A stretch of DNA of 19,757 nt from Synergistaceae bacterium (GCA_031276855.1 JAISMH010000015.1:1-19757); one strand, 5' to 3'. Positions 1,620 through 19,757 are shown, counted from the first letter of the stretch. Notes: a model not told the origin generated them from the sequence alone. Numbers and translations: made by a program.

Positions 1620-1637
1620 GCGATAAAAACTTATCGC
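1620..1637 (+). promoter_or_regulatory. Inverted repeat GCGATAA-N4-TTATCGC abutting the flgE SD (GGGAGGG). The half-site resembles a sigma-28 -10 element (GCCGATAA).
   Basis: The 7-bp arms are exact reverse complements. The repeat ends 3 nt before the SD. Confidence 0.4.
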
Positions 1638-1655
1638 GGGAGGGATTCATATAAA

Positions 1656-3802: not shown

Positions 3803-4036
3803 ATGATTGAACTTCACCGTTTGAATGGGGAGCTTTTTTGGCTGAATTCTGATATGATTGAGACCATCGACATCACGCCGGATACCGTGGTGCGTCTGGT
3901 CAACGGGCATCGTTACGTCGTGAGGGAAAACTGTCGAGATGTGAGGAACGCCATCGTGAACTTCCGGCGGGAGGCGGGGTATTCCTGCGTCCCGTTCGGG
4001 ATTCCTTTGGAAGCGGAGGACGGTCAGACGCGTTAG
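3803..4036 (+). CDS. flbD: Flagellar protein FlbD, 77 aa.
   Basis: MIELHRLNGELFWLNSDMIETIDITPDTVVRLVNGHRYVVRE matches the conserved FlbD N-terminus (MIxLTRLNGxxFxLNxxxIExIExTPDTVIxLxNGxKYVVxE). Its position directly after flgE is conserved. Confidence 0.85.
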   Translation: MIELHRLNGELFWLNSDMIETIDITPDTVVRLVNGHRYVVRENCRDVRNAIVNFRREAGYSCVPFGIPLEAEDGQTR

Positions 4037-4081: not shown

Positions 4082-4918
4082 TTGGCGGGCTCGAAAATTT
4101 TGTTCGGCCAGGGGGGGACGCAGGACTTGGATTTAACCACTGTCGTCGGATTTCTTATCTGTTGGATTCTCGTTATCGGCGGAATGGCCGCCGGGGGAAA
4201 CATTGCCGCCTATTACGACTTTCCTTCCATATTGATCACCGTGGGCGGATCGATAGGGGCCGTCGTCATCTCGCACCCGAGCGACATCCTGAAAACGGTG
4301 GGGGGCGCCATCAAGAACGCCTTTTTTTCCTCGGACCCCAACCTTCTCGGCATGGTGCAGACGATCGTGAGCTTCGCCGAAAAAGCCCGCAGAGAAGGGC
4401 TTCTCGCGCTCGAGGGCGATGTCGCGGAGCTGGACGACGAGTTTTTGCGCAAATCCATCCAGCTGGTGGTGGACGGCACGGATCCCGAACTGGTGAAGGC
4501 CATTCTGGACACGGAAATAGGCATTCTGGAAGACCGGCATTCCGCGAACAAATCCGTTTTCGACGCGACCGCCGAGCTCGCCCCTGCCTACGGGATGATC
4601 GGAACCCTGATCGGCCTCATCGCCATGCTGGGGAACCTTCAGGACGTCAGCGCCCTGGGGCCCGGCATGGCCGTCGCCCTGATCACGACGATGTACGGCT
4701 CCATGATGGCCAACATGCTCTGCATCCCGGTGGCCAAGAAGCTGGCCGCCCGCTCCTCCAAGGAAATCCTCTCCATGGAGCTGATGGTGGAGGGCATTCT
4801 GGCGATCCAGGCCGGCGAAAACCCCCGCATCGTCGAGGAAAAGCTGAAGGTGTTCCTGCCTCCGAAACTGAGGCACAACCTGGAGGACGCCCAGAAAGCG
4901 GAAAGAGGAGAAAAATAG
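4082..4918 (+). CDS. motA: Flagellar motor stator protein MotA (proton channel, 4 TM).
   Basis: TM segments VVGFLICWILVIGGMAAGG and the C-terminal plug/TM3-4 region YGMIGTLIGLIAMLGNL…ALITTMYGSMMANMLCIPVAKKL are typical of MotA/PomA/ExbB. The track start TTG 4082 has a weak SD. An alternative in-frame TTG at 4127 (LDLTTVV) is preceded by a G-run at 4111-4117, so the true start is uncertain. Confidence 0.88.
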   Translation: MAGSKILFGQGGTQDLDLTTVVGFLICWILVIGGMAAGGNIAAYYDFPSILITVGGSIGAVVISHPSDILKTVGGAIKNAFFSSDPNLLGMVQTIVSFAEKARREGLLALEGDVAELDDEFLRKSIQLVVDGTDPELVKAILDTEIGILEDRHSANKSVFDATAELAPAYGMIGTLIGLIAMLGNLQDVSALGPGMAVALITTMYGSMMANMLCIPVAKKLAARSSKEILSMELMVEGILAIQAGENPRIVEEKLKVFLPPKLRHNLEDAQKAERGEK

Positions 4919-4921
4919 AAC

Positions 4922-5647
4922 ATGGCGCGCAAGAAAAAAGCTCCTCCGCCGGGGCCCAGCGCCCCTCTTTACATGGCGACCTACGGGGACATGGTGACGC
5001 TCGTCCTGTGCTTCTTCGTCCTGCTGTTCGCGATGTCCTCGGTCGACGCCCAGAAGTTCCAGAAGGCCATTCTCTCCCTGCGCGGCTCTCTCGGCATCCT
5101 GAGGGGCGGTTCAACCGTGGAGGAGACCGTGGATCCGAACACCAGCGGCGAAGACGGAAGGGCCGCGGGCGCGGCGCCCCGCCATGTGATGAACACGCAG
5201 CACGTGGCCTACACGATCAACAGCTACCTGCGCAGCGAAGGGCTGGACAAAGCCATACAGGTGACCATCAACCAGAGGGGGGTCGCCGTCTCCATATCGG
5301 ATCAGTTCCTTTTCGACAGCGGCAGCGCCGTGCTGAAAACCGAAGGCAAGCGGGTCTTGTACAAAATAGCGACGCTGGTACGCGAGGAAGTCCCGGCCGT
5401 TTCCGTCGAGGGACACACGGACGCCGTTCCCCTGCGGGGGGGCATTTACCGGGACAACTGGGGACTCTCCTCGGCGAGGGCCGCCGTGGTGGCCTCCTAT
5501 CTGGCGGAGGAGGGAGGCGTGACGCCCCAGAAGCTCCAGGCGGTGGGATACTCGTCCTACCAACCGACGGTGCCCAACGACACGCCGGAGCATCGGGCTC
5601 TGAACCGCCGGGTGGACCTCGTTTTTCTGTCGCAGTATCCGAAATGA
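4922..5647 (+). CDS. motB: Flagellar motor protein MotB (OmpA-like peptidoglycan-binding C-terminal domain).
   Basis: N-terminal TM helix (MATYGDMVTLVLCFFVLLFAMS) with the conserved Asp in DMVTLL. OmpA-like C-terminal motif EGHTDAVP…NWGLSSARAAVVASYL…NRRVDLVF. GAGGAG SD 11 nt upstream. Confidence 0.9.
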   Translation: MARKKKAPPPGPSAPLYMATYGDMVTLVLCFFVLLFAMSSVDAQKFQKAILSLRGSLGILRGGSTVEETVDPNTSGEDGRAAGAAPRHVMNTQHVAYTINSYLRSEGLDKAIQVTINQRGVAVSISDQFLFDSGSAVLKTEGKRVLYKIATLVREEVPAVSVEGHTDAVPLRGGIYRDNWGLSSARAAVVASYLAEEGGVTPQKLQAVGYSSYQPTVPNDTPEHRALNRRVDLVFLSQYPK

Positions 5648-5678: not shown

Positions 5679-6125
5679 ATGAAAAGAATTTTGATTTTTG
5701 CCGTCGTGGGTTTGGTCATGTTCGCCGTCGGCTTCGGAGGAGGGCTCTTCATGGGCCGTGCGATGGCGCCCGACAGCTCCTCGTCGGGCCGGACGAAGAG
5801 CGTGGAGGCGCCGGGGCCGCTCGTCGCGGTGGGGGAGTTTACCAGCAATCTGGCCGGGTCGGGCAAGCACGTCATCAGCTTCACCGTTTCGCTGGAGACC
5901 CTGAACCCGAAGGCCGCGGACATCGTGGGCAACGTCTGGCTTCCGAGGATAAAAAACGAGATCCTGCTGATCGTGAAGGACAAAGTTTACGAAGATTTGA
6001 CGAGCGCCGAGGGAACGCTGCAGTTTGCCGAGGAGATCAAGCGGGCCGTCAACTCGCAGCTCCCGGAAGTCAACGGCGAGGCCCCCGTGGTGCGCGTCCT
6101 CTTCGAGGCGTTTGTGCTGCAGTGA
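5679..6125 (+). CDS. fliL: Flagellar basal-body-associated protein FliL.
   Basis: Single N-terminal TM helix followed by …LVAVGEFTSNL…HVISFTVSLETLNPKAADIV…IKNEILLIV…, which matches the FliL family pattern (…xLxxFxVNL…RYLxxxIxLE…). Its position between motB and fliM is conserved. Confidence 0.8.
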   Translation: MKRILIFAVVGLVMFAVGFGGGLFMGRAMAPDSSSSGRTKSVEAPGPLVAVGEFTSNLAGSGKHVISFTVSLETLNPKAADIVGNVWLPRIKNEILLIVKDKVYEDLTSAEGTLQFAEEIKRAVNSQLPEVNGEAPVVRVLFEAFVLQ

Positions 6126-6178: not shown

Positions 6179-6225
6179 CAGCGTGCGGCGGCGCCGCGCG
6201 GCAATTTTAAGGCAGGTGAGTGTTC

Positions 6226-7230
6226 TTGGCCCCCGATGTGTTGTCCCAGAGCGAAATAGATTCTTTGTTGAGCGCGCTGACGAGCGGGTCGATGGATCTC
6301 GACTCGATGACCCAGCAAAGCGAGTACGAGGTCAAGCTCTACGACTTCAAGCGCCCCGACAAATTCAGCAAGGACCAGCTGAGAGCCATTCAAATGATCC
6401 ACGAGGCCTTCGGGCGCCAGCTCTCGACCGTGATGTCCTCTCTCATCCGGTCCATGGTCGCGGCCGAGGTCGCCTCCGTGGACCAGCTGGCCTACGAGGA
6501 GTTCGTGAACTCCCTGGTTCAGCCCACGGTCATCGGAACGCTGGAAATGCATCCCTTCAACGGCAACGCCCTGATCGAGATCAATCCGAACCTGGTTTTC
6601 GCGATGATAGACCGGCTTCTGGGAGGCAAGGGGGAGTTTACCGGCAAGGCGCGGGAGCTGACGGACATCGAAAAGACGGTCATCGAGCGCGTACTGATGC
6701 GGATGCTCGAACTTCTGGAAGACAGCTGGAGTACGGTCGTGGACGTGAGGTTCCGCTTCGAGAGCATGGAGAGCAACCCCTTCTTCGTGCAGGTCTGTCC
6801 CCCGCGGGATATGGTGCTGCTGGTCATCATGAAGCTGCAGGTCGGAGAGGTGGAGGGGATGATCAGCCTCTGCATTCCCTACTTCCTGATGGAACCTATC
6901 GTGGACAAGCTCTCCTCTCAGCAGTGGTTCGTCTCGACGGGCCGCAAGGGCGACGACGGCGTCCGCGAAAATCTGCTCCATTCGCTCGACCGGGTGAAGG
7001 TTCCCATGTCCCTCGAACTGGGGCACACGGTTCTCAGCCTGGCGGACGTCTACGACCTCGAAGAGGGCGACGTGATCAAATTGGACGAGGAAATCGGCAG
7101 CGAGGTCGAGGTGCGGGTCGGAAACTATGTCCGCTTCAAGGCCAGGCCGGGAACCTTGGACGGCCGTCTGGCGGCCGAGGTGACGCGGGTCGTCAGCGGC
7201 ACGGACGAGCCTGAAGGAGGGGGAAACTGA
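6226..7230 (+). CDS. fliM: Flagellar motor switch protein FliM.
   Basis: N-terminal CheY-P-binding peptide (M)APDVLSQSEIDSLLSAL. Central CheC-like FliM domain. C-terminal SpoA/FliN-like domain (VPMSLELGHTVLSLADVYDLEEGDVIKLD). Start TTG 6226 lies 5 nt after AGGTGAG (6214-6220). The track lists GTG 6220, which sits inside that SD. Confidence 0.9.
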   Translation: MAPDVLSQSEIDSLLSALTSGSMDLDSMTQQSEYEVKLYDFKRPDKFSKDQLRAIQMIHEAFGRQLSTVMSSLIRSMVAAEVASVDQLAYEEFVNSLVQPTVIGTLEMHPFNGNALIEINPNLVFAMIDRLLGGKGEFTGKARELTDIEKTVIERVLMRMLELLEDSWSTVVDVRFRFESMESNPFFVQVCPPRDMVLLVIMKLQVGEVEGMISLCIPYFLMEPIVDKLSSQQWFVSTGRKGDDGVRENLLHSLDRVKVPMSLELGHTVLSLADVYDLEEGDVIKLDEEIGSEVEVRVGNYVRFKARPGTLDGRLAAEVTRVVSGTDEPEGGGN

Positions 7231-8342
7231 TGGATAATCTGTTGAGCCAGGATGAAATAAACTCTCTTCTCGGCGGAGGCGACGCCCCTTCAGGCTCCGC
7301 GGGGCTTTCTATGGAAGACACGCAGATTCTGAACGAGGTCGCGAGCATTTTCTCGAACGCGGAGAACAACGTGTTCAGCATGCTGGCGGGCAAGGAGGTC
7401 AACTCCAAAGGCGGGGAGACCGAGGTTCTTTCTCAGGCGGAGTTCAAGGCGAAACTTGGCGCCGAGACGCCTTTCGTTTTCAGGGCGACCTTCGACGGCT
7501 TCGACGACGTGCCTTTGATTTTTGCCGTCGGGCGCCGCGGCGCGCTGGCGCTGGCCGATTTGATGATGGGCGGAGAGGGGAAGGACGTCCCCGAGGAGGC
7601 CAGCGAGCTTTACCTGAACGCGGCTCAGGAGGGATTGAGCCAGGTCGTGGGCTCCGCCTTCACCAGCCTGAGCGGCCTGATGGGCGGCCGCCGCCTGATG
7701 CCCGAAAACACGAAGTCCGCTTTGGAAGAGGAAGACGACTGGGCGGTATTTCCCGCCTTGGACGCCGAGGCCAGGGTGTGGGCCAGCTTCTCCGAGGTGG
7801 AAATAGAGGGGCTGGAGCCCTTCGCGATATGGGCCGCCATTCCTTTGGATTCCGTGAAAACCATGGCGGAGCTGATTCGTCAAAATATGGGAGGAGGGGA
7901 AAAGCAGCCGGAGTCCCCTTCTTTATCTTCTTCTCCGTCTCCCCAGGCGCCCCGCGCGGCTCAGGCGGCGGGCGCTTCGCCCGCTTCCGCTCCTTCGACG
8001 AGAGGCGGCCAGCGTCCCGGGCCCGTGACCGACGTGCGCCCCGCGGAGTTCACTCCCCTCTCGGCCAAGGGCCCGGCGGGGAGCGGCAGCAAGATCGACC
8101 TGATCGCGGATATTCCGGTGCGTGTCACCGTGGAACTGGGGAAGACGAGAAAAAATATCTCCGAGATCCTGGGCATGACGACGGGTTCCGTCATCGAACT
8201 GGACAAAATGGCGGGGGAGCCCGTGGACGTGCTCGTCAACGGAAAGCTGATCGCCAAGGGCGAGGTCGTCGTGATCGACGAAAACTTCGGAGTGCGCGTC
8301 ACCGAGGTCTTGGGCGCGGCTCCGAAGGCCTACGCGGTGTGA
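7230..8342 (+). CDS. fliY: Flagellar motor switch protein FliY/FliN, long form. FliM-like N-terminal peptide, middle domain, and C-terminal FliN/SpoA domain.
   Basis: N-terminus MDNLLSQDEINSLLGG (LSQxEIxxLL CheY-binding motif). C-terminus IPVRVTVELGKTRKNISEILGMTTGSVIELDKMAGEPVDVLVNGKLIAKGEVVVIDENFGVRVTEV is a canonical FliN. ATG overlaps the fliM stop (TGATG). Confidence 0.85.
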   Translation: MDNLLSQDEINSLLGGGDAPSGSAGLSMEDTQILNEVASIFSNAENNVFSMLAGKEVNSKGGETEVLSQAEFKAKLGAETPFVFRATFDGFDDVPLIFAVGRRGALALADLMMGGEGKDVPEEASELYLNAAQEGLSQVVGSAFTSLSGLMGGRRLMPENTKSALEEEDDWAVFPALDAEARVWASFSEVEIEGLEPFAIWAAIPLDSVKTMAELIRQNMGGGEKQPESPSLSSSPSPQAPRAAQAAGASPASAPSTRGGQRPGPVTDVRPAEFTPLSAKGPAGSGSKIDLIADIPVRVTVELGKTRKNISEILGMTTGSVIELDKMAGEPVDVLVNGKLIAKGEVVVIDENFGVRVTEVLGAAPKAYAV

Positions 8343-8657: not shown

Positions 8658-9020
8658 ATGGGCAAAAAGGTTCTGATAGTGGATGACGCTGCCTTTATGC
8701 GTATGATGTTGAAGGATATTCTCCAGAAACACAGTTTCGAGATTGTGGGAGAAGCAGAAAACGGAAAGCTCGGGGTTGCGGCCTATCAGAAATACAAGCC
8801 CGACATCGTGACGATGGATATAACGATGCCGGAAATGAACGGCATCGACGCCGTAAAGGCCATCAAGACGCTGGATCCTGCCGCGAAGATCGTGATGGTC
8901 TCCGCGATGGGACAGCAGCCGATGGTCATCGAGGCCATTCAGGCGGGCGCCAACGACTTCATCGTCAAGCCCTTCCAACCGGAGCGCGTGATCGAGGCCA
9001 TTTCCAAAGTCTTGGGTTAA
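8658..9020 (+). CDS. cheY: Chemotaxis response regulator CheY (single REC domain, 120 aa).
   Basis: KVLIVDDAAFMRMML…DIVTMDITMPEMNGIDAVKAIK…KIVMVSAMGQQ…AGANDFIVKPF. All REC catalytic residues are present (DD, D-phosphoacceptor in TMDI, T/S, K). SD GCGAGGGG 7 nt upstream. Confidence 0.92.
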   Translation: MGKKVLIVDDAAFMRMMLKDILQKHSFEIVGEAENGKLGVAAYQKYKPDIVTMDITMPEMNGIDAVKAIKTLDPAAKIVMVSAMGQQPMVIEAIQAGANDFIVKPFQPERVIEAISKVLG

Positions 9021-9197: not shown

Positions 9198-9461
9198 ATG
9201 GCTCTGGCTCTTGCGGTGATGGCTGTCATTGCGGTCGCCGCTGTTCGTTTTGTCAAAAGCGGAGCCCGCGGAGGGCGGAGCGGGGCGCGTGTCGAAGTTA
9301 TGGCATCCTTGCCTTTGGGTAAGGATGTTTTTTTCGTTCTGCGGTGCGGTCCCGAGGTTTTTGCCCTGACATCCGGGCACGCGGGGACTCATCTGATAGG
9401 CAGGTGGAAATATGAAGAATGGCTTCGATGGGAAGAAAAGGAGAAGGCTTGCGAAAGCTGA
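9198..9461 (+). CDS. fliO: Flagellar biosynthesis protein FliO (FliZ of Bacillus), short form.
   Basis: One TM helix (LALAVMAVIAVAAV) followed by RVEVMASLPLGKDVFFVLRCGPEVFALTSGHAGTHLIG. This matches the FliO core (…ERVPLGPRESLVLVEVGGRVLVLGVT…). Its position between cheY and fliP is conserved. An in-frame stop at 9156 bounds the start, and the SD is weak. Confidence 0.55.
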   Translation: MALALAVMAVIAVAAVRFVKSGARGGRSGARVEVMASLPLGKDVFFVLRCGPEVFALTSGHAGTHLIGRWKYEEWLRWEEKEKACES

Positions 9462-10245
9462 GTCATTTTTCTTCTTCTGCTTTTTGACCGGTCTCGTCCT
9501 CGCGGTCTTTTTTGCCGCTTCGCCCGCCGAAGCCGCTTTTGTCGAGGAAGCGCCGAGAATACCCATTCCGCTTCTGCAGTTGGGCGTCGTCCCGGCGGAC
9601 TCCCCGCAGGATGTCGCCGTTTCCTTGCAGATACTGGCTCTTTTGACGGTGCTGACCCTGGCCCCGGCCATTTTGCTGATGCTGACGAGCTTCACGCGGA
9701 TCGTCGTGGTGCTGGGGTTCATTCAGCGCGCGATCGGTCTCCAGCAGTCGCCGCCCCAGCAGACCATCGTCAGCCTCGCCCTCTTCCTCGCCCTCTTCAC
9801 GATGTATCCGACGTGGAACCGCATCTACGAGAACGCCCTCGCCCCCTATCTGGCGAAGGAGATCGACTCCCCGCGGGCGTGGACGGAGACGATCACGCCC
9901 CTGAGGGAGTTCATGTTCCGTTACACCCGTCAGGAGGAGCTGTCCCTGATGGTCTCCATGGCGAACCTCGAACGCCCGGAGAACCGGGAGGAGGTTCCGA
10001 CGCGGGTTCTGATCCCCGCTTTCATGCTGAGCGAGCTCAAGACCGCTTTTCAGATGGGCGTGGTGATCTACATTCCCTTCATCATCGTGGACATGATCGT
10101 GTCGAGCGTCCTTTTGGCGATGGGCATGATGATGCTGCCCCCCATGATGATTTCTCTGCCGTTCAAGATCCTGCTCTTCGTGATGGCCGACGGCTGGAAC
10201 CTCGTCGTCGTGAGCCTTCTCAAGAGCTTCACGAACGTGCCGTAA
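9412..10245 (+). CDS. fliP: Flagellar type III export apparatus protein FliP.
   Basis: Signal peptide, then the conserved LTLAPAILLMLTSFTRIVVVLGFIQRAIGLQQSPP and C-terminal YIPFIIVDMIVSSVLLAMGMMMLPP motifs. AGGTGGA SD. Overlaps the 3' end of fliO by 50 nt. Confidence 0.92.
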   Translation: MKNGFDGKKRRRLAKAESFFFFCFLTGLVLAVFFAASPAEAAFVEEAPRIPIPLLQLGVVPADSPQDVAVSLQILALLTVLTLAPAILLMLTSFTRIVVVLGFIQRAIGLQQSPPQQTIVSLALFLALFTMYPTWNRIYENALAPYLAKEIDSPRAWTETITPLREFMFRYTRQEELSLMVSMANLERPENREEVPTRVLIPAFMLSELKTAFQMGVVIYIPFIIVDMIVSSVLLAMGMMMLPPMMISLPFKILLFVMADGWNLVVVSLLKSFTNVP

Positions 10246-10257
10246 GGGGGCGGGCTC

Positions 10258-10533
10258 ATGGACATCGTTCCGATCAACATGTTCGACATCTTAAACGAGG
10301 CGGTCTGGACGATGCTCCTCGTCACCATGCCCATTCTTCTGGTGGCGATGGGCGTGGGGCTCATTATCGGCATCGTGCAGACGGCGACGTCCATTCAGGA
10401 GCAGACGCTGATCTTCATCCCGAAGATTTTGGCCGTGTTTTTGTTCATCATCCTCGTCGGGCCCTGGATGGCCGACAAGATTCTGGGCATCACTCGGGAA
10501 ATTCTGGGGCACCTCGAGAGGTTCATTCAATGA
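10258..10533 (+). CDS. fliQ: Flagellar export apparatus protein FliQ.
   Basis: 91 aa with two TM segments. LLVTMPILLVAMGVGLIIGIVQTATSIQEQTLIFIPKILAVFL is the FliQ signature. Confidence 0.9.
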   Translation: MDIVPINMFDILNEAVWTMLLVTMPILLVAMGVGLIIGIVQTATSIQEQTLIFIPKILAVFLFIILVGPWMADKILGITREILGHLERFIQ

Positions 10534-10590: not shown

Positions 10591-11388
10591 TTGCAGGGGC
10601 TTGAGATTCCCGCGCAGCTTCTGGTGGTGTACTGTCTGGTGCATCTTCGGTTCGTGGGCATGATGTTCACGTTTCCCCTGTTTTTCACGACGGCGAGCCC
10701 CGTTCCCTTCCGGTTTCTTTGCGCCGTTTTCCTGACCGTGACCGCGGCGGGCACTCTGGCGGAGAGCGGGGAGGATTTCGCCGTCTCCATGGTTCTCCTC
10801 GAAAGCTGGGTGCCGCTTCTGCTGATGGCCCTGCGCGAGCTCTTCATCGGCGCGGCCCTCGGTCTCCTCGCGGCCCTGCCTCTGGTGGCGCTCCAGGTCT
10901 CGGGGGAGCAGGTGAGCATGGCGATGGGGCTCTCCATGGCCAGCGTGATGGACCCCCTGATGGACCGCCAGACCTCCATCATCGGGCAGCTTCAGTTTCT
11001 GATCGGGCTGTGGTTCTATTTCCGCTGGAACGGCCACCTTCTGCTGATTCAGGCGGTCGTGGAAAGCCTGCGCCTTCTCCCGCCGGGGAGGCTCTCCTGG
11101 ATTCCCGCGGGGGACCTGTCGTTCGGGGATTGGCTCTCGGCGGTTTTCGACCTGGCGGCGAAGATCGTCGTTCCTTTTTACTGCGCCCTCCTGCTGGCGG
11201 ATGTCGGGCTGGGGTTTCTGGCGCGGACCGTTCCCCAGATGAACATTTTCATTTTGGGCCTGCCCGTGAAAATCGCGCTGGGGTTCTTCGTCCTGGCGAT
11301 CGTTCTGCCCCTGGCCGTGGAGATCGTCTACGCGCATCTGGAGCGGTGGGTCGAGTTCGCCCTGCAAAGCTCGATGGTCTGGCGCTGA
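10591..11388 (+). CDS. fliR: Flagellar export apparatus protein FliR.
   Basis: Polytopic membrane protein. ALRELFIGAALGLLAALPLVALQVSGEQVSMAMGLSMASVMDP is typical of FliR. TTG start with GGAGG SD at 10579-10583 (7-nt spacing). Confidence 0.88.
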   Translation: MQGLEIPAQLLVVYCLVHLRFVGMMFTFPLFFTTASPVPFRFLCAVFLTVTAAGTLAESGEDFAVSMVLLESWVPLLLMALRELFIGAALGLLAALPLVALQVSGEQVSMAMGLSMASVMDPLMDRQTSIIGQLQFLIGLWFYFRWNGHLLLIQAVVESLRLLPPGRLSWIPAGDLSFGDWLSAVFDLAAKIVVPFYCALLLADVGLGFLARTVPQMNIFILGLPVKIALGFFVLAIVLPLAVEIVYAHLERWVEFALQSSMVWR

Positions 11389-11436: not shown

Positions 11437-11500
11437 TATAAATTCGGTGGATATAAATTCGATGGCTATAAATTCGATGAATATAAATCCCGTGACTGAA
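11437..11500. repeat. 15-bp tandem repeat TATAAATTCGATGRN, 4 copies plus degenerate extras, in the fliR-flhB spacer.
   Basis: Units at 11437, 11452, 11467 and 11482. Each carries a TATAAAT box and an in-frame ATG or GTG. Confidence 0.9.
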
Positions 11501-11530
11501 TCGAGCGATATGAATTCTCGGCGGCCGTCG

Positions 11531-12631
11531 ATGAAAACAATCCCCCGTTTCGTTTTCGACATTCAATTCTTCGCCCAGGAGCGCACGGAGGCGGCGACGC
11601 CCAAGAAGCGCCAGAAGGTGCGCTCCGAGGGGAAGGTCTGCAAAAGCCGCGACCTGACCGCCGCCGTCGAAATTCTGACGGGCCTCGTGGGGCTCGTGAT
11701 GTTCGGGCCCTCGATCTTCGGCGGGCTCATCGACTATTTCCGCGAGATGATCGGGGTTCTGGGGGAGGAATCGCTTCTGCGGGCTGGCTGGTTTTACCGC
11801 CTGGAGTTCACGGCGCTCCGGGCCTACTTCGGCGCCTGGCTCCTGCCGGGGCTCCTCATCGCGGCCTTCACCACGGCCGTGACGGTCTATCAAATCGGCT
11901 GGGTCATCAGCTTCGAGCCTTTCAAATTCGACTTGAACCGCCTGAACCCCGTCTCCGGCATGAAAAAGATCATCTCCCTGCGCTCTCTCGTGGAGCTGCT
12001 GAAGGGGCTTCTGAAGGCCTCCCTCTTCGTCCTCGTCATCTATATCGCCATGCGGGACAAACTGCCCGCCGCCGTGTACGCGATGCAGCTTTCGATGGCG
12101 GCAGGGGCCCTGCTCTTCTGGAACCTGCTGTGGGACCTCTCGATGCGGCTGGCCGCGATGCTTTTGGTCATGGCGCTCGTGGACTACCTGTACCAAAAGT
12201 GGGATTATGAAAAGTCCATACGGATGAGCAAGCAGGAGGTCAAGGAAGAGTTCAAGCAGATGGAGGGCGACCCTCAGATCAAAAGCAAGATCCGCCAGAA
12301 ACAGCGGGAGCTCGCGAAGAAGAGAATGATGTCCTCCGTGCCCAAGGCGGACGTGGTCATCACGAACCCCACCACCCTGGCGATCGCTTTGGTGTACGAC
12401 CGCAAAATCATGGCCGCGCCTCAAATCACGGCGAAGGGCAAGGGCTTCGTCGCCCGGAAGATCCGCGAGCTGGCCGCGGCGCACGGGGTCCCCGTCATCG
12501 AAAACAAACCCCTAGCCTGGGCGCTTTACGAGTCCGCCGATGTGGGGGACGAGGTGCCGGAGAACCTCTACCGCGGCGTCGCCGAAATTCTGGCGATGGT
12601 CTACAAACTCGCCGGAAAACAGCCGTCTTAG
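11531..12631 (+). CDS. flhB: Flagellar export switch protein FlhB.
   Basis: N-terminus MKTIPRFVFDIQFFAQERTEAATPKKRQKVRSEGKVCKSRDL parallels Bacillus FlhB (MKLRVDLQFFAGEKTEKATPKKR…). The C-terminal autocleavage region contains NPTTLAIALVY, which carries the NPTH-like motif. The track ORF extends in-frame upstream to GTG 11447 through the 15-bp repeats. ATG 11531 is preferred by homology. Confidence 0.9.
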   Translation: MKTIPRFVFDIQFFAQERTEAATPKKRQKVRSEGKVCKSRDLTAAVEILTGLVGLVMFGPSIFGGLIDYFREMIGVLGEESLLRAGWFYRLEFTALRAYFGAWLLPGLLIAAFTTAVTVYQIGWVISFEPFKFDLNRLNPVSGMKKIISLRSLVELLKGLLKASLFVLVIYIAMRDKLPAAVYAMQLSMAAGALLFWNLLWDLSMRLAAMLLVMALVDYLYQKWDYEKSIRMSKQEVKEEFKQMEGDPQIKSKIRQKQRELAKKRMMSSVPKADVVITNPTTLAIALVYDRKIMAAPQITAKGKGFVARKIRELAAAHGVPVIENKPLAWALYESADVGDEVPENLYRGVAEILAMVYKLAGKQPS

Positions 12632-12752
12632 GGCCGTTTTCAGCCGCGGCGGATCTGCTTGGACGAGCCCTCTAATCGTTCACAAAGTTCTTGCGCGGAA
12701 GTCCCGCCGTATTGTAAGATAAAAATACATTATACACGGGGAGAGGGTCGTC

Positions 12753-14015
12753 ATGCGGAGAGCGGGAAGAAAAACGGATTCATGGGAGTTCCTGAAATTA
12801 AGGAAGCTCTTGAATTTCCTGAGGTTCATTAAATTTGCGGCGTGTTTTCTCTTCCTGTTTTCCCATCCCGCTCTCCCCGCTTTTTGCGCCGAGGCCGACA
12901 CGTCCCTTTGGACGTGGGACGTGCTGGTCATTCCCCCCGACGAGGGCTGGCAGAGCGAGAAAGGTCTTTCCGTTCAAAATGCGCTCCAATGGCACGCGGC
13001 CGAAATCTCGGAGAGCGGAGCCGGCATTCGGGGTCATGACCTCCGATTCGTCTTTCTCCCGCCCCTGACGGAGGACTCCGCGCGGAGTTTCGCCCTTCCC
13101 AACGACCCCCGCGCCGTCGCCGTCATGAGCTTCGCGTCGAACCCCGTGGACAGGGCGCTGGCGGATAGAGAACTGGCCGGCCGCTCCGCGGGAAGCGGGC
13201 TTCCCCTCTTCCTGGCCGGCGGAGAAAACGTTTCCCTCTTCGAGGGGAGCCGTCCTGTCCCGCGGCTTTTCGCCCTCGACCTTTTTCGGGACTACCGCTG
13301 TCAGGCTTTCGCGGATTACGCGTCGAAAATCGCGGCAAAAGACGCCCGGGTGGGCGTCATGGGCGCGCGGTTCACGCTCAACGAGGAACGCGAGGCCAAA
13401 ATTTGCTTCGACCTCTTCTCGGAAGCGGGTTTCATGCCCATGCCCTACTGGGTGGACGCCTCCGTGAGGGACTCCTTCTCCATGGTCGAACAGGAGATCG
13501 TCGACTACAGCAACGGCATTCTCATCAGCTACATCGGGAGCATGGGCACGAAGGAAATCTGGCGCGGCATCATGGGACACCAGTCCCCTTACCGGATCTG
13601 GTACGGCGGGGTTCCCGACAAATCCTTCCTTTCTTATAGAGGCATGATCTTCGCCGATCAGAACATGTATCTGGACGCGCTGGGGGGCTTTGAGCGGCTG
13701 AAGCGCGACCTGTGGTCGTCGCGCGCCCTGTCCGCCCCGGACAAGGTCGCGGCGGGGCGGGCCAACGCCCTCGCGTTCTGGCTGATTCAGGCCCTGAAGG
13801 CCCTTCCGGGCGATTTGGACAGCATCGACAGGAACGCGCTGCTTTCCCTTCTGGCCGAAGCGCGGGACATTCCCTTCGGCTCCCAGACGCTGAATATCGA
13901 CCGGGACACCCACCGCCCCGGAACGCGGCGGGTCTTCATCATGGAAATGCGCAACAGGAGCTTTTTTGTCCTGGACACCCTCGGCGTGCGGGGACTGAAA
14001 CACCGCGGCGATTGA
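12753..14015 (+). CDS. Secreted periplasmic-binding-protein-like protein (type I PBP fold, LivJ-like), Sec signal peptide. No adjacent ABC permease or ATPase.
   Basis: N-terminal hydrophobic signal sequence (FLRFIKFAACFLFLFSHPALPAFCAEA). Alternating beta-alpha pattern: VLVIPPDEGWQ…, VGVMGARFTLNEE…, ILISYIGSMG…. GGGGAGAGGG SD 6 nt upstream. The family assignment is by pattern only. Confidence 0.55.
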   Translation: MRRAGRKTDSWEFLKLRKLLNFLRFIKFAACFLFLFSHPALPAFCAEADTSLWTWDVLVIPPDEGWQSEKGLSVQNALQWHAAEISESGAGIRGHDLRFVFLPPLTEDSARSFALPNDPRAVAVMSFASNPVDRALADRELAGRSAGSGLPLFLAGGENVSLFEGSRPVPRLFALDLFRDYRCQAFADYASKIAAKDARVGVMGARFTLNEEREAKICFDLFSEAGFMPMPYWVDASVRDSFSMVEQEIVDYSNGILISYIGSMGTKEIWRGIMGHQSPYRIWYGGVPDKSFLSYRGMIFADQNMYLDALGGFERLKRDLWSSRALSAPDKVAAGRANALAFWLIQALKALPGDLDSIDRNALLSLLAEARDIPFGSQTLNIDRDTHRPGTRRVFIMEMRNRSFFVLDTLGVRGLKHRGD

Positions 14016-14164
14016 GTTTTAAGCTCAGGGGGGCGGAGCCAACAAAGAAAGTAAGCGATTCGCACAGCTCCTTCGTCGCTGGCTCTCTGCTTATCGTTCG
14101 CCCAAAAGCGGGCTCACTGGCCCCCCCGAACCCCCCTGTTTATTTAATTCGGAGGTCTTTTTTC

Positions 14165-14929
14165 ATGGAAGCAGGCGATATGACTACAGGCGTTGCGGAA
14201 CGGCTGGCGGAGTGCCTGAAAAAGAAGAAAACCGACTGCGTGACGCTGGGGAGCCTGCCCGTTTCGCTGAAAAGGCTGCTGACGGGGAAACCCAGGCCCG
14301 CCGCCGCCGAGCTCGAAAAATGCGCCACCCCGCACCTCGGGGAAAACCTGATGCTGAAACGGAGCGGGCGGTACGTTTACCTCGCGCTCCGGCAGCCCGA
14401 CGAGTCGCTGCTGCTCGGCATCCTTCGGAAGAGGGCCGGGAAGAGCCCCAGCGCGAACAACACCCCCTTCAGGAAAGAAGAATTCATCGCCGTCCTGAAC
14501 CGCCTGATCGAGCAGGGAAAAATCCTTGTCAGGCTCAACAAAGACTGCAAACCCCTCCTTTTCCCGATTCCGGCCCGGAGCCCGGAGGCCCCGGCCGGAG
14601 CGGAAAAAGCGGGCCTGAACGCAAATCTGAATATAAATCAGAATGCAAATCAGGAAGCGGGGCGGGAGAGCGTTTCCGCGGAGCGGTTCGAGAGCGCGTA
14701 CCGGGAGCTGGAAGGGGGGAAGTTCTTTGTCCGCGTCTGCGACCTCCGCCGCCGTCTGGGCTGGGGGCGGAAGGAGTTCGACGGGACGGCGGCCGCGCTT
14801 CGGGACGCGGGGAAAATCCAGCTGCAGTCCGGGGACACCGCCTACTTCAGCGAGCGGGACATCGCGGACAGCTTCATCGACGAGAACGGCTTTCGGATGC
14901 TCACCCTGATGTGGCTCGGGCGGACGTAG
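14165..14929 (+). CDS. Hypothetical protein (254 aa) with two globular halves separated by an Ala/Asn-rich linker. Each half resembles a winged helix.
   Basis: GGAGG SD 9 nt upstream of ATG 14165. GC3-rich codon usage typical of this genome. No recognisable catalytic motif. Linker …PARSPEAPAGAEKAGLNANLNINQNANQEAG…. Confidence 0.55.
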   Translation: MEAGDMTTGVAERLAECLKKKKTDCVTLGSLPVSLKRLLTGKPRPAAAELEKCATPHLGENLMLKRSGRYVYLALRQPDESLLLGILRKRAGKSPSANNTPFRKEEFIAVLNRLIEQGKILVRLNKDCKPLLFPIPARSPEAPAGAEKAGLNANLNINQNANQEAGRESVSAERFESAYRELEGGKFFVRVCDLRRRLGWGRKEFDGTAAALRDAGKIQLQSGDTAYFSERDIADSFIDENGFRMLTLMWLGRT

Positions 14930-14937
14930 CCCGGAGG

Positions 14938-14979
14938 AACGGGGCGCGTTCCACGCCGCCCCGTTAATTTGAAATTTTG
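14938..14979 (+). terminator. Candidate intrinsic terminator or attenuator between the 254-aa gene and the NTPase gene.
   Basis: 9-bp GC-rich stem AACGGGGCG/CGCCCCGTT (14938-14946 pairs with 14957-14965) with a 10-nt loop, followed by AATTTGAAATTTTG. The T-tract is interrupted. Confidence 0.35.
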
Positions 14980-15006
14980 AACCTGAGTGTTTTTCTGGAG
15001 ATGAAA

Positions 15007-16995
15007 ATGAGCGCTTTCGGGATTCGGGAACAGATTTTTCAGAACAACCCCTTTTTTTCCGGCATCGCCTCCGACCCTTGGGACAACACGGACCCCGACG
15101 TCCCCTCCCTGAACGAGGAAGCCTGCCGGCACCTCTGCGGGCTGGTTCTCGCCAAGAGCCGGAACCCCTGCGCGGCCTCGGCCGGGCTGATTCTGGGCGA
15201 GGCGGGGATGGGCAAGACGCACCTCCTGAAGCGCCTTCTGCGCTACGTTCGGAAGGAAGGCATCGCGGCGCTCTTCGCGTCCATCACTCCCCTGCCGGAC
15301 CCCGGCAGTCCCATGCGGCACCTCCTGCGGGAGATCGCCCTCGACCTGTCGGGCAGAGGGATCTACGAAGACAGGCGGACGAAGCCCCTGACGCGGCGGA
15401 GCGTCACCCAGTTCGACTATTTGCTCGACAAGGCCGCGGCGGCCTGCCGGAAGGACGAGGAGGACTCGAAACCGCGGACGGGCATTCTCCGCTTCCTGAG
15501 CGACCGCTTCCTGAGCGACCGCTTTCCAGGCGCCCGCCTTCCGGGCGCCCGCTTGCGGAGCGGCGCCGCGCTTCTTCGGGAGCGGTGCCGGGGTATTCAC
15601 CCCCGCCTGCTCGGGGCCGTGTTCGGCCGCTCCGACCCCCGCCAGCGGGAGGCCGTTCTGGAGTGGCTCGAAAACGGCGCCCGGGCGGAAGGGGAAGAGG
15701 AGGCGCGGAGGGTTCTCGTGTCCCTGGGAATGCTTCTGGAATACTGCGGAATGTCGCTGATCGTCTGCTTCGACCAGCTGGACGGGATGAGGGACGACGC
15801 CCTGATCACGGCGTTCGGGGACACCGTCCATTTTCTGGTGAACGACGTGAAGGGGATGCTGCCTCTGGCGTTCGTTCGGATGAACACGTGGAGCGACCGT
15901 TTTTCACGGCTCGATCCGGCCGTGACGCAGCGGCTTTCCGGGAACGAGATGTTCCTCTACGCCTGCACGCTGGAGCAGGCGCGGGAGCTCATCCGGGTCC
16001 GGCTCGAATCCCGCTTCAAGGGCGATACCGAGGAAAAGTTTCAATGGCTGATGGAGCGGCTGGAGGGGAAGCTGAAAGCGGGGTATTCTCCGCGCGCCGT
16101 GATCGAACTGGCCAACCGCGAAATCGTGCGCGAAAGAGAACCCGAAAAGGAGCCCCTTGAAAAAGACCCAATCGAAAGGGAACTCGCCGAATTGGCATCC
16201 CTCGGCGGAGAACCGCGCGGCGGCGAGCCGCGCAGCGAAGAACCCGCCGGAGAACCCTTTAATGTCTCGAATTCCTTCGATGTCTCGAATGCCTTTAATA
16301 TCCCGAATGCCTTCGATACCCTCGATTTAGTCGAGCCTTCCGATACCTCTTCGGCCGGCCCTTCTTTGACTGGCTCTTCTTTAACTGAAGACGGGCCGGG
16401 GGCGATTCTGGAAGTCTTCGCGGACGAATACCGCAAAGCGCGCAAAAAGGCGGACGCCGGCGTCAGGCGTTCCCCCGATCCCGAAAGCCTTGTCCGCGCC
16501 CTCGAAACCTGCCTGCTCTCCCGCGCGGACTTCACAGACGTCCGCCGCACGGAGGACGGCTACATCGCCCTGACGGCGCGGCGCGAGGGAGGCGGGGCCT
16601 GCGCCTTCATCGTCAGCACGCAAGAAAACCACCGCGCGGTCCAGACGGCGCTGGCGCGCGGGGTCTCCTTCCTGTGGGATCACCCCGACGGGGAATGCTT
16701 CTGCGTCGCCGCCGGGCGCCAGGATTTCAGACTCCGCAAAAATTGGCCGAGCGTGCAGAAAGAGCTGCAAAAATTTCTGGAGGCAAAGGGCACCGTCTTC
16801 TATTTGAACCGCAGACAGGCCGCGGCCTGGTACGCTCTGGCGGCCCTCCGCCTCGAGGTGGACAGGGGAAACATCCGGCTGCCCGCTCCCGACGGAAAAC
16901 AGCGCGCGGCCCAAATAGAGGACCTCGCGCTGTTCCTGAGACAGAGTTCTGAAAAAGACCTGCCGGAGTGGTGGGATGCGAAAAATGGATTGTGA
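15007..16995 (+). CDS. Large P-loop NTPase (AAA_16/STAND-like) with an uncharacterised C-terminal domain of about 250 aa and internal in-frame tandem repeats.
   Basis: Walker A LILGEAGMGKTHLLKRLL and Walker B-like LIVCFDQLDGMRDD. GGAG SD 6 nt upstream of ATG 15007. The track start is TTG 14977. Confidence 0.7.
   Translation: MSAFGIREQIFQNNPFFSGIASDPWDNTDPDVPSLNEEACRHLCGLVLAKSRNPCAASAGLILGEAGMGKTHLLKRLLRYVRKEGIAALFASITPLPDPGSPMRHLLREIALDLSGRGIYEDRRTKPLTRRSVTQFDYLLDKAAAACRKDEEDSKPRTGILRFLSDRFLSDRFPGARLPGARLRSGAALLRERCRGIHPRLLGAVFGRSDPRQREAVLEWLENGARAEGEEEARRVLVSLGMLLEYCGMSLIVCFDQLDGMRDDALITAFGDTVHFLVNDVKGMLPLAFVRMNTWSDRFSRLDPAVTQRLSGNEMFLYACTLEQARELIRVRLESRFKGDTEEKFQWLMERLEGKLKAGYSPRAVIELANREIVREREPEKEPLEKDPIERELAELASLGGEPRGGEPRSEEPAGEPFNVSNSFDVSNAFNIPNAFDTLDLVEPSDTSSAGPSLTGSSLTEDGPGAILEVFADEYRKARKKADAGVRRSPDPESLVRALETCLLSRADFTDVRRTEDGYIALTARREGGGACAFIVSTQENHRAVQTALARGVSFLWDHPDGECFCVAAGRQDFRLRKNWPSVQKELQKFLEAKGTVFYLNRRQAAAWYALAALRLEVDRGNIRLPAPDGKQRAAQIEDLALFLRQSSEKDLPEWWDAKNGL
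15490..15555 (+). repeat. In-frame 15-bp tandem duplications inside the NTPase gene (CGCTTCCTGAGCGAC x2 perfect, then CCRGGCGCCCGCYTK x2), encoding FLSDR-FLSDR-FPGARL-PGARL.
   Basis: Read directly. Confidence 0.9.
16201..16320 (+). repeat. In-frame block of 15-bp periodic repeats in the NTPase gene, encoding GEPRG-GEPRS-EEPAG and FNVSN-SFDVSN-AFNIPN-AFD.
   Basis: Read directly. Low-complexity linker between the NTPase domain and the C-terminal domain. Confidence 0.8.
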
Positions 16996-17018
16996 TTTAT
17001 AATTTATTATTTTATAAT

Positions 17019-17804
17019 CTACGGTTTGCGGAGCGCGTTTTCGACGAAGGGCTTCAGGAGGTCGATGGGGATGGGGAAGAAGGTGGTGGAGTTCCGCTCC
17101 CCCGCGATTTCGCGTATGGTCTGCAGGTAGCGCAGCTGCAGCGTCACGGGCGAGATCTCCATCTGCTGCGCGGCCTCGGACAGCTTGGCCGCGGCCTGCA
17201 GTTCGCCCTCGGCGGCGATGATCTTGGCGCGGCGCTCGCGCTCGGCCTCCGCCTGACGCGCCATGGCGCGCTTCATGCCCTCGGGGAGCTCCAGTTCTTT
17301 CACCTCGACGGCGCTGACCTTGATTCCCCACGGGTCGGTGCGTTCGTCGATGATCTTCTGCAGTTCGTGGTTGATTTTTTCGCGGGAGGACAGAACCTCG
17401 TCCAGCTCGACGGAGCCGACGACGGAGCGCAGGGTCGTCTGGGCCAGCTGGCTCGTGGCCTGAACGTAGTTCTCGACCTCCACGACGGAGTGCGACGGGT
17501 CCAGCACCCGGAAGTACACGACGGCGTTGACCTTGATGGGCACGTTGTCCTTCGTGATGACCTCCTGGACGGGGACGTCCATCGTCAAAATGCGGAGGTC
17601 GACGGTGACCACGCGGTCGATGACGGGAATGACGAACACGATGCCCGGCCCGCGGCTCCCGGCCAGGCGCCCCAGGCGGAAGATGACGACCCGCCTGTAC
17701 TCCGGTACGATTTTGACGGCGGAAGAAAACAGCAGCACCGCGATGAGCAAAACCCCAAACCAACTGCCGATGTTCGACAGTATCCCAAAGACGTCGACGA
17801 CCAT
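17019..17804 (-). CDS. SPFH/band-7 protein, stomatin-like (261 aa) with an N-terminal TM anchor.
   Basis: Minus-strand translation …[72 protein letters not shown]…[35 protein letters not shown] is canonical prokaryotic stomatin. ATG at 17802-17804 (complement) with a GGAGAG SD. The track merges it into a 638-aa ORF because of an open GC-rich frame upstream. Confidence 0.88.
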
Positions 17805-17917: not shown

Positions 17918-19084
17918 TCACTGCGTCGGGCCGATGCGGTTGACGGCGAAGCTGGCGTAGCCGAGGTCCTCGCTTTTCGTGGATTTTCCGTCCGCGACGC
18001 GCAGCATTTCGGCGAAGAGCTCCCCGCCGAGCTCGGCGATCGTCTTCGTTCCCGTGACGATCGGGCCGGCGTCGATGTCCATGTTGTCGCGCATCCGCTC
18101 GAACGTCGGGGTGTTGGAGCAGATTTTGATCACCGGGGCGATGGGGCAGCCGGTGCAGGTTCCGCGCCCGGTGGTGAAGAAGATCACCTGAGCGCCGCCC
18201 GCCGCCATGCCCGTGATGGACTCGATGTCGTGCCCCGGCGTGTCCATGACGACCAGTCCGCGCCGGGTGGGGCGTTCCGCGTAGTCGAGGACCTCCACCA
18301 GGGGGGCGTCCTGTCCGGCCTTGCTGATGCAGCCCAGAGACTTTTCCTCCAGCGTCGAGATTCCGCCCTGCCGGTTGCCCGGCGTGGGGTTGGCCAGCCG
18401 GATGTCCACGCCGCCGGAAAGCGCGCCCTCCTCCGCCCTCCGAACAATGAAAAACAGGCGCTCCGCTATATCGGGACGCTCCGCCCGCTCGGCCAGAAGG
18501 TGCTCCGCGCCGATCATCTCCTGCGTTTCCGACAGAATGGACGTGCCGCCTTCCCGGATCAGGCGGTCGGAGGCGCCGCCCGCGGCGGGGTTCGCCGAGA
18601 TGCCGGACCACGCGTCGGATCCCCCGCACTCGAGCCCCAGAGTCAGAGCGGAAAGAGGGTGTTCGCCGCGGCGCATGACGGACATCTCCGCCAGCATCCC
18701 GCGCCCGATTCGGACGCCTCTGGTGATGGTGTCGAGGGTCCCGTTCCCGTCCTGAATGGTCAGGCAGGCGACGGGCTTGCCGGGCGACATCGCCTCGATA
18801 TCGCGGGCGACATCCCGCGCCTGGACCGTCTCGCACCCCAGCCCCACCACGATACAGGCCGCCACGTTCGGGTTCGCCCCGAACCCCGCCAGGGTCCGCC
18901 TCGTCTGGGCGGCGTCGGCGGGAAGCTGCGCGCACCCGTGCTGGTGCGTGACGCAGACGGCCCCGTTCAGCTGCAAAGCGATGCGCATGGCCGTGTCGTT
19001 GGCGCAGACCACGGACGGCAGGACCAGAAGATGATTCCGAACCCCGACGCTGCCGTCCGGCCTCGCGTATCCCATGAAGTTCAT
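17918..19084 (-). CDS. UxaA-family dehydratase large subunit (altronate/D-galactarate dehydratase-like C-terminal domains), 388 aa.
   Basis: [29 protein letters not shown]…[20 protein letters not shown]…[47 protein letters not shown] is a hallmark of UxaA/GarD-family hydrolyases. The start overlaps the upstream gene's stop (ATGA). Confidence 0.85.
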
Positions 19085-19407
19085 TGCCGGTCCCCCCTGC
19101 CTCTCAGGCCCTCGAGATTGTGAATATGGACGTGCGCGCCTTTCGGGATGTACTCCGACGCGGCGCCGATCACCGAACCGTATTTCAGGACGTTCTCCCC
19201 CCTGCGAAAATCGCGCAGCGCGATCTTGTGCCCCGCGGGAACGGCCGTGACGGCCGTCAGCTCCAGCGGAGGCCCGTTTTCTCTCCGCGCCGCGATCCGC
19301 TCCCCCGCCGCCACATCGCGAATCACGACGGCAACGTCGTCCTTCGCCGCGACGCAATGCGCGTCCGCCTTCTCCATTTTTTTCATTCGCTCCATTTGCT
19401 CCATCAC
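19081..19407 (-). CDS. SAF-domain protein, the small subunit of the split UxaA-family dehydratase.
   Basis: …[21 protein letters not shown]…[45 protein letters not shown] matches the SAF/UxaA N-terminal domain. Several in-frame ATGs (M1, M2, M5, M8, M11) make the start uncertain. Confidence 0.75.
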
Positions 19408-19442
19408 CTTTGCGTTGTGATAGCCGTGCGTTGTCTGCGTTT

Positions 19443-19451
19443 ATTATAGCA
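19443..19451 (-). promoter_or_regulatory. Extended -10 promoter candidate (minus strand TGCTATAAT) upstream of the SAF/UxaA operon.
   Basis: Plus strand ATTATAGCA, which is TGCTATAAT on the minus strand, lies about 36 nt upstream of the first ATG at 19407. Confidence 0.3.
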
Positions 19452-19757
19452 ACACTCCGACCGTAATGAGACAATGTATCCGTTTAAGCCCCTCCTTGCT
19501 GAAAAAGCGTCGAACAGGAGATCAGGATAGAGGCGGAGCAGGAACCCCTTCCCCCGGACATTATCACAGACGAGCGACACAATTCCTCCCCAAAGGCTTG
19601 CGCAAATCCGCTTGAATGATGTACAATTCAAACTAGAAAAAGATTTTACAGGGGGGGTGTGCAGAGAAGTATACCCTCCTGCATATCCTTTTTTTACGCA
19701 TCACCCTTTCGCAGAATCCAGTCATTGCAAGGCTCCTTTCGAACGTCCGACGCTGTG

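Follow-up and report, generated by a model that had tools for sequence, protein, structure and literature searches.

The window analysed here is the whole of a 19,757-nucleotide stretch of DNA from a Synergistaceae bacterium (GCA_031276855.1, JAISMH010000015.1:1-19757), and our subject is the point at which its flagellar operon ends. The plus strand carries thirteen flagellar genes in the order flgE-flbD-motA-motB-fliL-fliM-fliY-cheY-(fliO)-fliP-fliQ-fliR-flhB, which we checked by profile search. The interval 12632-17018, which extends exactly from the stop codon of flhB to the stop codon of a convergent SPFH gene, contains three further genes, referred to as g1, g2 and g3, in the place where flhA and flhF might be expected. 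The original prediction took this for a replacement of flhA by a three-gene insert. Comparison with related genomes shows that an operon ending at flhB is the ordinary, inherited and lineage-typical gene order of this group. The window is the entire 19.8-kb contig of a Fretibacterium-type Synergistales metagenome-assembled genome (MAG) from the gut: proteins with 100% identity to the products of g2 and g3 are present in the database, and the contig given for them has 19,757 bp, so that nothing lies beyond the window on the same contig.

The flagellar genes, the junction behind them and the block that follows are:

1566-3764, plus strand: flgE, hook protein, first flagellar gene of the contig (Pfam Flg_bb_rod, LlgE_F_G_D1, FlgE_D2, Flg_bbr_C)
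3824-4036, plus strand: flbD (Pfam FlbD, E 2e-19)
4082-4918, plus strand: motA, stator (Pfam MotA_ExbB, MotA_N)
4922-5647, plus strand: motB, stator (Pfam MotB_plug, OmpA)
5679-6125, plus strand: fliL (Pfam FliL, E 8e-17)
6220-7230, plus strand: fliM (TIGR01397 fliM_switch, 335.6 bits)
7230-8342, plus strand: switch protein of the fliY/fliN type (FliMN_C, E 6e-25)
8658-9020, plus strand: single-domain response regulator of the cheY type (Pfam Response_reg, E 6e-33)
9198-9461, plus strand: probable fliO, a weak assignment (TIGR03500, E 0.0035, under the cut-off)
9412-10245, plus strand: fliP, export gate (Pfam FliP)
10258-10533, plus strand: fliQ, export gate (Pfam Bac_export_3)
10591-11388, plus strand: fliR, export gate (Pfam Bac_export_1)
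11447-12631, plus strand: flhB, final flagellar gene (Pfam Bac_export_2, E 5.7e-119)
12632-12690, no strand: synteny breakpoint interval of ~60 bp, resembling the flhB loci of the relatives L001-L003 on its left and the block of the related contig L083 on its right (blastn, alignment)
12753-14015, plus strand: g1, secreted, divergent type I periplasmic binding protein (LivJ/Peripla_BP_6-like) of 420 aa (family profile)
14165-14929, plus strand: g2, tandem winged-helix protein of 254 aa, conserved partner of g3 (AlphaFold2 model, Foldseek)
15001-16995, plus strand: g3, AAA+ ATPase (AAA_16) of the ORC/Cdc6 type, 664 aa, with a C-terminal alpha/beta domain (Pfam AAA_16)
17019-17804, minus strand: SPFH/Band 7 protein, convergent with g3, within the block common to L083 (Pfam Band_7, E 8e-42)

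The order of the original prediction from flgE to flhB is thereby confirmed, with profile support for each gene (weak for fliO), and the export gate proteins FliP, FliQ, FliR and FlhB are encoded in order. The coordinate 1566 is that of the open reading frame (ORF) of flgE, whose real start probably lies slightly downstream. The product of the cheY-type gene is 88-93% identical to the proteins at the equivalent position in relatives. The fliO candidate has no Pfam match; its position between cheY and fliP agrees with fliO.

Neither FlhA nor FlhF is encoded in the window. Two FlhA and two FlhF queries, taken from loci with flhB-adjacent copies (Schwartzia, L045, and Oceanirhabdus, L046), gave no match in a tblastn search at E ≤ 1e-3. 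Two Synergistales FlhA queries gave only chance-level matches at E ≤ 10 (best E 0.3), with no FlhA remnant, and a Pfam search found FHIPEP in none of the ORFs downstream of flhB. A FlhA protein with the FHIPEP domain and about 700 aa is not present next to flhB. In this respect the original prediction, which had noted the absence of flhA, of flhF and of any FlhA reading frame, was correct.

In a collection containing one genome per species we found 36 flhB loci of Synergistales, 35 of them with at least 1 kb of sequence downstream of flhB and 24 with the full 10 kb. flhA and flhF are not within reach downstream of flhB in 34 of the 35 informative loci, which form a Fretibacterium-type clade. 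Among loci from outside the Synergistales (Selenomonadales, Clostridia, Deferribacteres, Zixibacteria and others), flhA follows flhB immediately in 40 out of 44. The sole Synergistales exception, L027, retains the canonical arrangement fliK-flgD-flgE...flhB-flhA-flhF; it represents an Aminivibrio-like sister lineage, and its FlhA is 97% identical to a protein of Aminivibrio sp. In a neighbour-joining tree of FlhB the unlinked loci form one clade with L027 as its sister, and the window groups with L001, L002 and L003. The FlhB of the window is 74-75% identical to those of 'Synergistales bacterium PG1894_187' (L001) and 'Synergistaceae bacterium Pq454_bin48' (L002), and 56-68% identical to those of some 30 further Fretibacterium-type genomes. 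Given the position of L027 in the tree, the pattern is most simply read as a single ancient break between flhB and flhA, passed on to the entire clade. The unlinked state is unlikely to be an artefact of fragmented MAGs, because 24 loci extend over the full 10 kb after flhB and one 83-kb contig carries both genes apart from each other. Our literature searches for a published description of the flhA/flhB arrangement in Synergistetes gave nothing specific.

The 83,010-bp contig belongs to the closest relative (BOCC01000001.1). Its flhA (41602-43737, plus strand; protein P0047) heads a unit flhA-flhF-PilZ(YcgR-like)-cheB-cheA-cheC-cheD-sigma28-FapA, and its flhB is located at ~74116-75207 on the minus strand, ~30 kb from the flhA unit, the two units being convergent. 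The same flhA operon, with flhG, is found in Fretibacterium sp. OH1220_COT-178. Since the relatives, too, end their operon at flhB and carry flhA in a second operon elsewhere, the arrangement in the window is an inherited gene order and not a replacement. This is in substance the lineage-typical arrangement that the original prediction had itself named as contrary to its reading. In the closest relative (L081) the flhA operon may begin one gene earlier, with a 217-aa gene without a Pfam match (9312-9965) that has the same orientation as flhA and ends 36 bp before it.

For the MAG of the window itself there is a candidate flhA. The product of g2 is identical to MDR2174463.1 (locus tag LBO82_00820, a Synergistaceae MAG), and a FlhA protein, P0044 (MDR2175442.1, on a contig of 27,850 bp), bears an accession 979 numbers higher, a gap that fits within the consecutively numbered proteins of one MAG. 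P0044 is 89% identical to P0047, a value comparable to those of the other flagellar proteins. Very probably, P0044 comes from the same MAG as the window. In a metagenome scan with P0044 the best among the matches listed was a 3-kb fragment (86% identical); the 27,850-bp contig was not among the matches listed, which followed generic FlhA patterns. In the relatives flhA has been located elsewhere; for the assembly of the window, in which the original prediction proposed to look for flhA, P0044 is the candidate.

The Bacillus subtilis-type fla/che super-operon has the order flgB...flgE-flbD(swrD)-motA/B or fliL-fliM-fliY-cheY-fliO-fliP-fliQ-fliR-flhB-flhA-flhF-flhG-cheB-cheA-...-sigD, and this order is also seen in the Schwartzia, Clostridia and Deferribacter loci. 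Between flgE and flhB the window agrees with it in gene content and gene order, and the relatives' flhA unit matches the second half, flhA-flhF-(flhG)-cheB-cheA-cheC-cheD-fliA. In contrast to the B. subtilis type, the Fretibacterium-type clade has the two halves as separate units, which in the closest relative are ~30 kb apart and on opposite strands, and it shows additional breaks further upstream. In L006 the operon starts at flbD, and LPG-synthase-like and PEMT-like genes precede flbD-motA (L006 1-3100). In most genomes of the RGIG, rumen type flgE was not found upstream of motA by tblastn. The flagellar clusters of the clade are broken at several junctions, and fragmentation is common. Outside the Synergistales, no flhA follows flhB in L049, L057, L061 and L065 (Deferribacteraceae, Deferribacterales, Calditerrivibrio and an unclassified thermophilic MAG), and it is retained after flhB in Deferribacter (L050, L064); in the four loci without it, the flhB-flhA junction apparently underwent breaks independent of the one in the Synergistales.

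What follows flhB differs between subclades. In the nearest relatives of the window (L001, L002, L003, L006 and L079) the next genes are a conserved set of housekeeping character, encoding a hypothetical protein, 6-phosphofructokinase, a D-glutamate-cyclase-like (GLUCM-like) protein, another hypothetical protein and Rho; other subclades have different genes 3' of flhB. In L001 (8935-12038) two phosphofructokinase paralogues of 411 aa and 318 aa flank a conserved 260-aa protein without a Pfam match. g1, g2 and g3 occur in none of the 36 related flhB loci. They are found on a related metagenomic contig (L083), again in the order g1-g2-g3 and followed by the convergent SPFH gene; the left neighbour there is a histidine kinase and not flhB. 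Amino acid identities between the window and L083 are 80% for g1 (L083:3712-4935), 72% for g2, 60% for g3 (75% over the aligned columns) and 95% for the SPFH protein (L083:7708-8493). Homology to the Synergistales flhB loci, at the level of both DNA and protein, stops at ~12609-12631 and DNA homology to L083 starts at 12691, which places the breakpoint within 12632-12690. As pfk-rho follows flhB in the nearest relatives, the block has displaced the pfk-rho neighbourhood in the lineage of the window, and not flhA. Ratios of nonsynonymous to synonymous substitution rates (dN/dS, window versus L083) are 0.27-0.34 for g1-g3 (0.27 for g1, 0.33 for g3) and 0.09 for the SPFH gene; at such values g1-g3 are kept by selection.

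The borders of the block do not look like those of a mobile element. No tRNA gene and, by Pfam, no integrase, transposase or recombinase domain is present at the block, and the repeat search found no border repeats beyond chance-level matches of 14-25 nt. The GC content of the block (0.62-0.64) and that at third codon positions (GC3, 0.78-0.82) do not set it apart from the flagellar genes (0.53-0.64 and 0.70-0.84). The hallmarks of a recently inserted mobile element or genomic island, i.e. a recombinase, tRNA or att repeats and a deviating composition, are all lacking. The terminator and promoter scan gave no canonical terminator after flhB; an imperfect hairpin that includes the stop codon of flhB lacks statistical significance (z -1.8).

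The three genes between flhB and the SPFH gene are non-flagellar, in agreement with the original prediction. Its secreted gene resembling a periplasmic binding protein, g1, is recognizable as such at the family level. The N-terminus, read from the sequence, has a hydrophobic, signal-like segment. The homologues of g1 make up a small family: a set of 1.84 billion representatives contains 51 clusters of it (50% identity). Of 24 homologues, 11 match Peripla_BP_6 (PF13458; best E 1e-11), and the family profile finds LivJ-type structures (3td9_A, E 5.6e-6; 4gnr, E 4e-5). The similarity to LivJ/Peripla_BP_6 proteins thus lies in the family-profile match and the signal-like segment. The protein of the window differs from them in that it scores below the Pfam threshold by itself (E 0.15 against Peripla_BP_6), belongs to a small family and is an orphan, with no permease or ATPase genes of an ATP-binding cassette transporter adjoining it in the window or in L083. 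NCBIfam, PADLOC and PHROGs assigned g1 to no family. A relationship of g1 to the 260-aa hypothetical protein after the relatives' flhB, or to the gene upstream of flhA, was considered and rejected, as there was no blastp match.

g2 has no family match at the sequence level (Pfam, NCBIfam, PADLOC, PHROGs and a sequence-profile search of the PDB). An AlphaFold2 model with a mean predicted local distance difference test score (pLDDT) of 85.5 predicts two folded modules with helix-strand patterns typical of winged helices, connected by a disordered linker (residues 141-164). The top Foldseek matches of this model are all multi-winged-helix proteins (ESCRT-II, RPC34, TFIIIC, UFL1/DDRGK1), with probabilities of 0.87-1.0, E-values from 8e-4 to 1e-2 and TM-scores of 0.2-0.3. 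The predicted structure supports a tandem winged-helix fold, as the original prediction had suspected.

g3 matches AAA_16 with 33.1 bits at a cut-off of 32.6. Its Walker A (GxxGxGKT; GEAGMGKTH) and Walker B (VCFDQLD) motifs are intact and invariant in the family alignment. The AlphaFold2 model (pLDDT 77) finds ORC1/Cdc6, BREX BrxC, TnsC and HslU in Foldseek searches. Residues ~1-400 are predicted to share the fold of the ORC/Cdc6-clade AAA+ proteins, including BREX BrxC and transposon TnsC (probability 1.0, E 6e-5 to 1e-3), and like these proteins g3 keeps both Walker motifs. It differs from them by an identity of only 10-14%, by its distinct C-terminal alpha/beta domain and by the lack of BREX or Tn7 partner genes. 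The g3 proteins of the window, L083 and P0123 are without a ~70-aa, winged-helix-like C-terminal tail that most family members possess. NCBIfam, PADLOC and PHROGs gave P-loop-level matches only, and no g3 match was found on plasmids.

We also considered g3 as a STAND NTPase and rejected this assignment. The P-loop is present, and the matches to STAND profiles stay under their cut-offs (NACHT, E 0.006; nSTAND3, E 0.21), so that g3, unlike STAND proteins, has no NB-ARC or NACHT match above threshold; a match to Avs2 (E 3.5e-4) is confined to the P-loop region. The nucleotide-binding oligomerization domain architecture is lacking, and the C-terminal region is modeled as a compact alpha/beta domain without repeats in place of a repeat sensor domain. 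Of the "AAA_16/STAND-like NTPase" of the original prediction the AAA_16 part stands, whereas the STAND part gives way to a predicted fold of the ORC/Cdc6, BrxC and TnsC kind. Two in-frame tandem repeats were observed in g3, at 15489-15518 (2 x 15 nt, RFLSD-RFLSD) and at 16256-16309 (3 x 18 nt, FNVSNS/FDVSNA/FNIPNA). Both are low-complexity insertions specific to the window and fall in loops predicted to be disordered (pLDDT below 50). Between g2 and g3 lies a 71-bp spacer (14930-15000), in which a GC-rich hairpin of 9 bp (AACGGGGCG...CGCCCCGTT) precedes a run rich in T. The genes of distant homologues overlap by 4-13 nt; in the window the pair may have become uncoupled.

In every context examined, a g2 homologue lies directly upstream of a g3 homologue, often overlapping it. 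More distant genomes (L084-L091, from a Planctomycetes MAG and from other Synergistaceae) have a third gene after the pair; its product of ~670 aa combines a PDDEXK_1 domain (a Cas4-like PD-(D/E)xK nuclease) with an ATPase of the FtsK/HerA type. The triads are located at:

9258-15926 in L084, where an additional 508-aa gene lies in between
5273-10162 in L085
5336-10061 in L089
5300-9986 in L090/L091 (L091 from GCA_031556285.1)

The C-terminus of the third protein matches the PADLOC profiles SspH (E 2e-60) and mad8 (E 3e-23). The third, nuclease/translocase gene is missing from the window and from L083. DndFGH and SspFGH are the restriction modules of phosphorothioate systems (PMC8092258), and the distant relatives of g2-g3 have a similar three-gene layout, in which an ATPase with a Walker A motif is combined with a smaller protein and a large one that ends in an FtsK-like translocase. 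In contrast to DndFGH/SspFGH, the third protein of the relatives is shorter (~670 aa against about 1,700 aa) and has a Cas4-like nuclease domain, dnd and ssp modification genes are absent from the vicinity, and the window has no third gene. g2 and g3 gave no match to SspF/G or DndF/G profiles at E ≤ 1. There is accordingly no F- or G-like match, and an H-like C-terminus only in the third gene of the distant relatives, so that the window does not carry a Dnd/Ssp FGH-type module. Judged by its neighbours in other genomes, the full triad probably acts in DNA-directed conflict or defence, and the copy in the window would be an effector-less derivative of it. Against a defence role it has to be said that no PADLOC system matches the whole triad and none matches g2 or g3 at the system level; literature searches for a Cdc6/FtsK/Cas4 triad gave nothing specific. 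Tentatively, g2-g3 may belong to an undescribed, phylum-spanning three-gene DNA-conflict system, of which the window and L083 would hold a natural, effector-less two-gene derivative under purifying selection, perhaps re-purposed, e.g. as a regulator; we regard this wider idea as rather doubtful.

Beyond the block the minus strand continues with a split dehydratase:

17918-19084, minus strand: large subunit of altronate/galactarate dehydratase (Pfam GD_AH_second, GD_AH_C)
19081-19407, minus strand: small subunit of altronate/galactarate dehydratase (Pfam SAF)

The two genes overlap by 4 nt, and a longer ORF (17918-19474) is an over-extension. Together with the SPFH gene they are the convergent minus-strand genes that had been predicted to follow g3. 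At the other end of the contig, a gene running off its 5' end (2-1108, plus strand) lies directly upstream of flgE and encodes the last 368 aa of a giant protein of phage type. It matches positions 990-1259 of the 2231-position profile phrog_9880 (E 1.8e-50) and shows ~26% identity to large podophage proteins (podophages of Pseudomonas, Xanthomonas and Vibrio). The gene 5' of flgE is thus neither flgD nor fliK, and a gap (1109-1565) separates it from flgE; on this flank as well, the flagellar block borders on a break in synteny, the second of the contig, or on the edge of a prophage.

Based on these results we propose the following history. The ancestral fla/che super-operon would have been cut between flhB and flhA in the ancestor of the clade, and since then flhA would have headed a separate unit elsewhere, flhA-flhF-(flhG)-PilZ/YcgR-like-cheB-cheA-cheC-cheD-fliA. 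The window would carry the segment from flgE to flhB; flhA would be neither lost nor replaced and would reside on another contig. A later, lineage-specific local rearrangement with its breakpoint at 12632-12690 would then have brought a pre-existing chromosomal block, g1-g2-g3-SPFH, beside flhB, with a g2-g3 copy that has no effector gene and no ATPase C-terminal tail and is still under purifying selection. An old, clade-wide split of the operon, with flhA elsewhere, followed by an unrelated change of the downstream neighbour appears highly probable to us. Some points weigh against it: the FlhB tree is a neighbour-joining tree of a single gene without support values; P0044 is placed in the same assembly solely by the proximity of accession numbers; no independent contig was found across the junction of flhB and g1; and there is no promoter or terminator call between these genes, so that g1 could be co-transcribed with the flagellar operon.

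The original prediction amounts to a recent three-gene cassette, mobile element or defence island, that displaced flhA or separated it from flhB in this genome. The sharp homology breakpoint at 12632-12690, the lack of g1-g3 after flhB in all relatives, and the nuclease/translocase gene typical of defence islands that adjoins family members of g2-g3 elsewhere would all suit such an event. However, relatives without the cassette are also without flhA after flhB (34 of 35), and the split is therefore older than the arrival of the cassette. What is missing in comparison with the nearest relatives is pfk-rho, not flhA; there is no FlhA remnant; integrase, transposase, tRNA, flanking direct repeats and a compositional shift are all absent; and the block reaches into the SPFH gene (95% conserved) and forms a chromosomal unit in L083. 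We consider a cassette insertion very improbable. What remains of the original explanation is that an old, clade-wide rearrangement unlinked flhA; the insert itself, with neither mobile hallmarks nor a shift in composition, does not.

An assembly chimera, in which the end of the flagellar operon is joined to an unrelated Synergistales fragment at ~12632-12690, would account for the missing junction-spanning contig and is a natural concern for a metagenome-assembled contig whose left end also abuts an unexpected phage-like gene. Exact-sequence look-ups with g1, g2, g3, FliP and P0044 gave no record, which would also suit a chimera. Yet the junction lies in unique intergenic DNA and not in a repeat, GC and GC3 are equal on both flanks, the best matches of both flanks are in Synergistales, and the operon ends at exactly the same point in all relatives, so that the missing flhA can be explained without any join. 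A chimera is improbable in our view, and a chimeric join at 12632-12690 would leave the conclusion on flhA unchanged. The absence of flhA and flhF from 19.8 kb could also mean that flhA, and with it motility, was lost and that the operon is a decaying remnant. All 12-13 flagellar genes, however, are intact ORFs with strong profile scores, every relative examined has the flhA operon elsewhere, and a FlhA protein (MDR2175442.1) has an accession near the numbers of this MAG; we regard such a loss as extremely unlikely. The clade-wide split followed by a change of neighbour is the history that we retain.

In Helicobacter and Campylobacter the flagellar genes are scattered and flhA and flhB are unlinked, and the flagellum is functional. 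As in the Fretibacterium-type clade, flhA does not lie beside flhB in these genera, and linkage of the export-gate genes in one operon is accordingly not obligatory. The Synergistales differ from them in that large blocks are intact and few junctions are broken, and both the lineage and the breakpoints are different. Because the linkage of flhB and flhA was, on the simplest reading, broken once and inherited, the absence of flhA after flhB is no sign of loss or mis-assembly; annotators and motility predictions should not read a missing flhA after flhB in gut and oral Fretibacterium-type MAGs in this way. The consequence for the flagellum itself is small, and the side result may be the more useful one: the winged-helix protein with its ORC/Cdc6-like ATPase, joined in some genomes by the nuclease-translocase, is a conserved, unannotated module and a candidate defence system.

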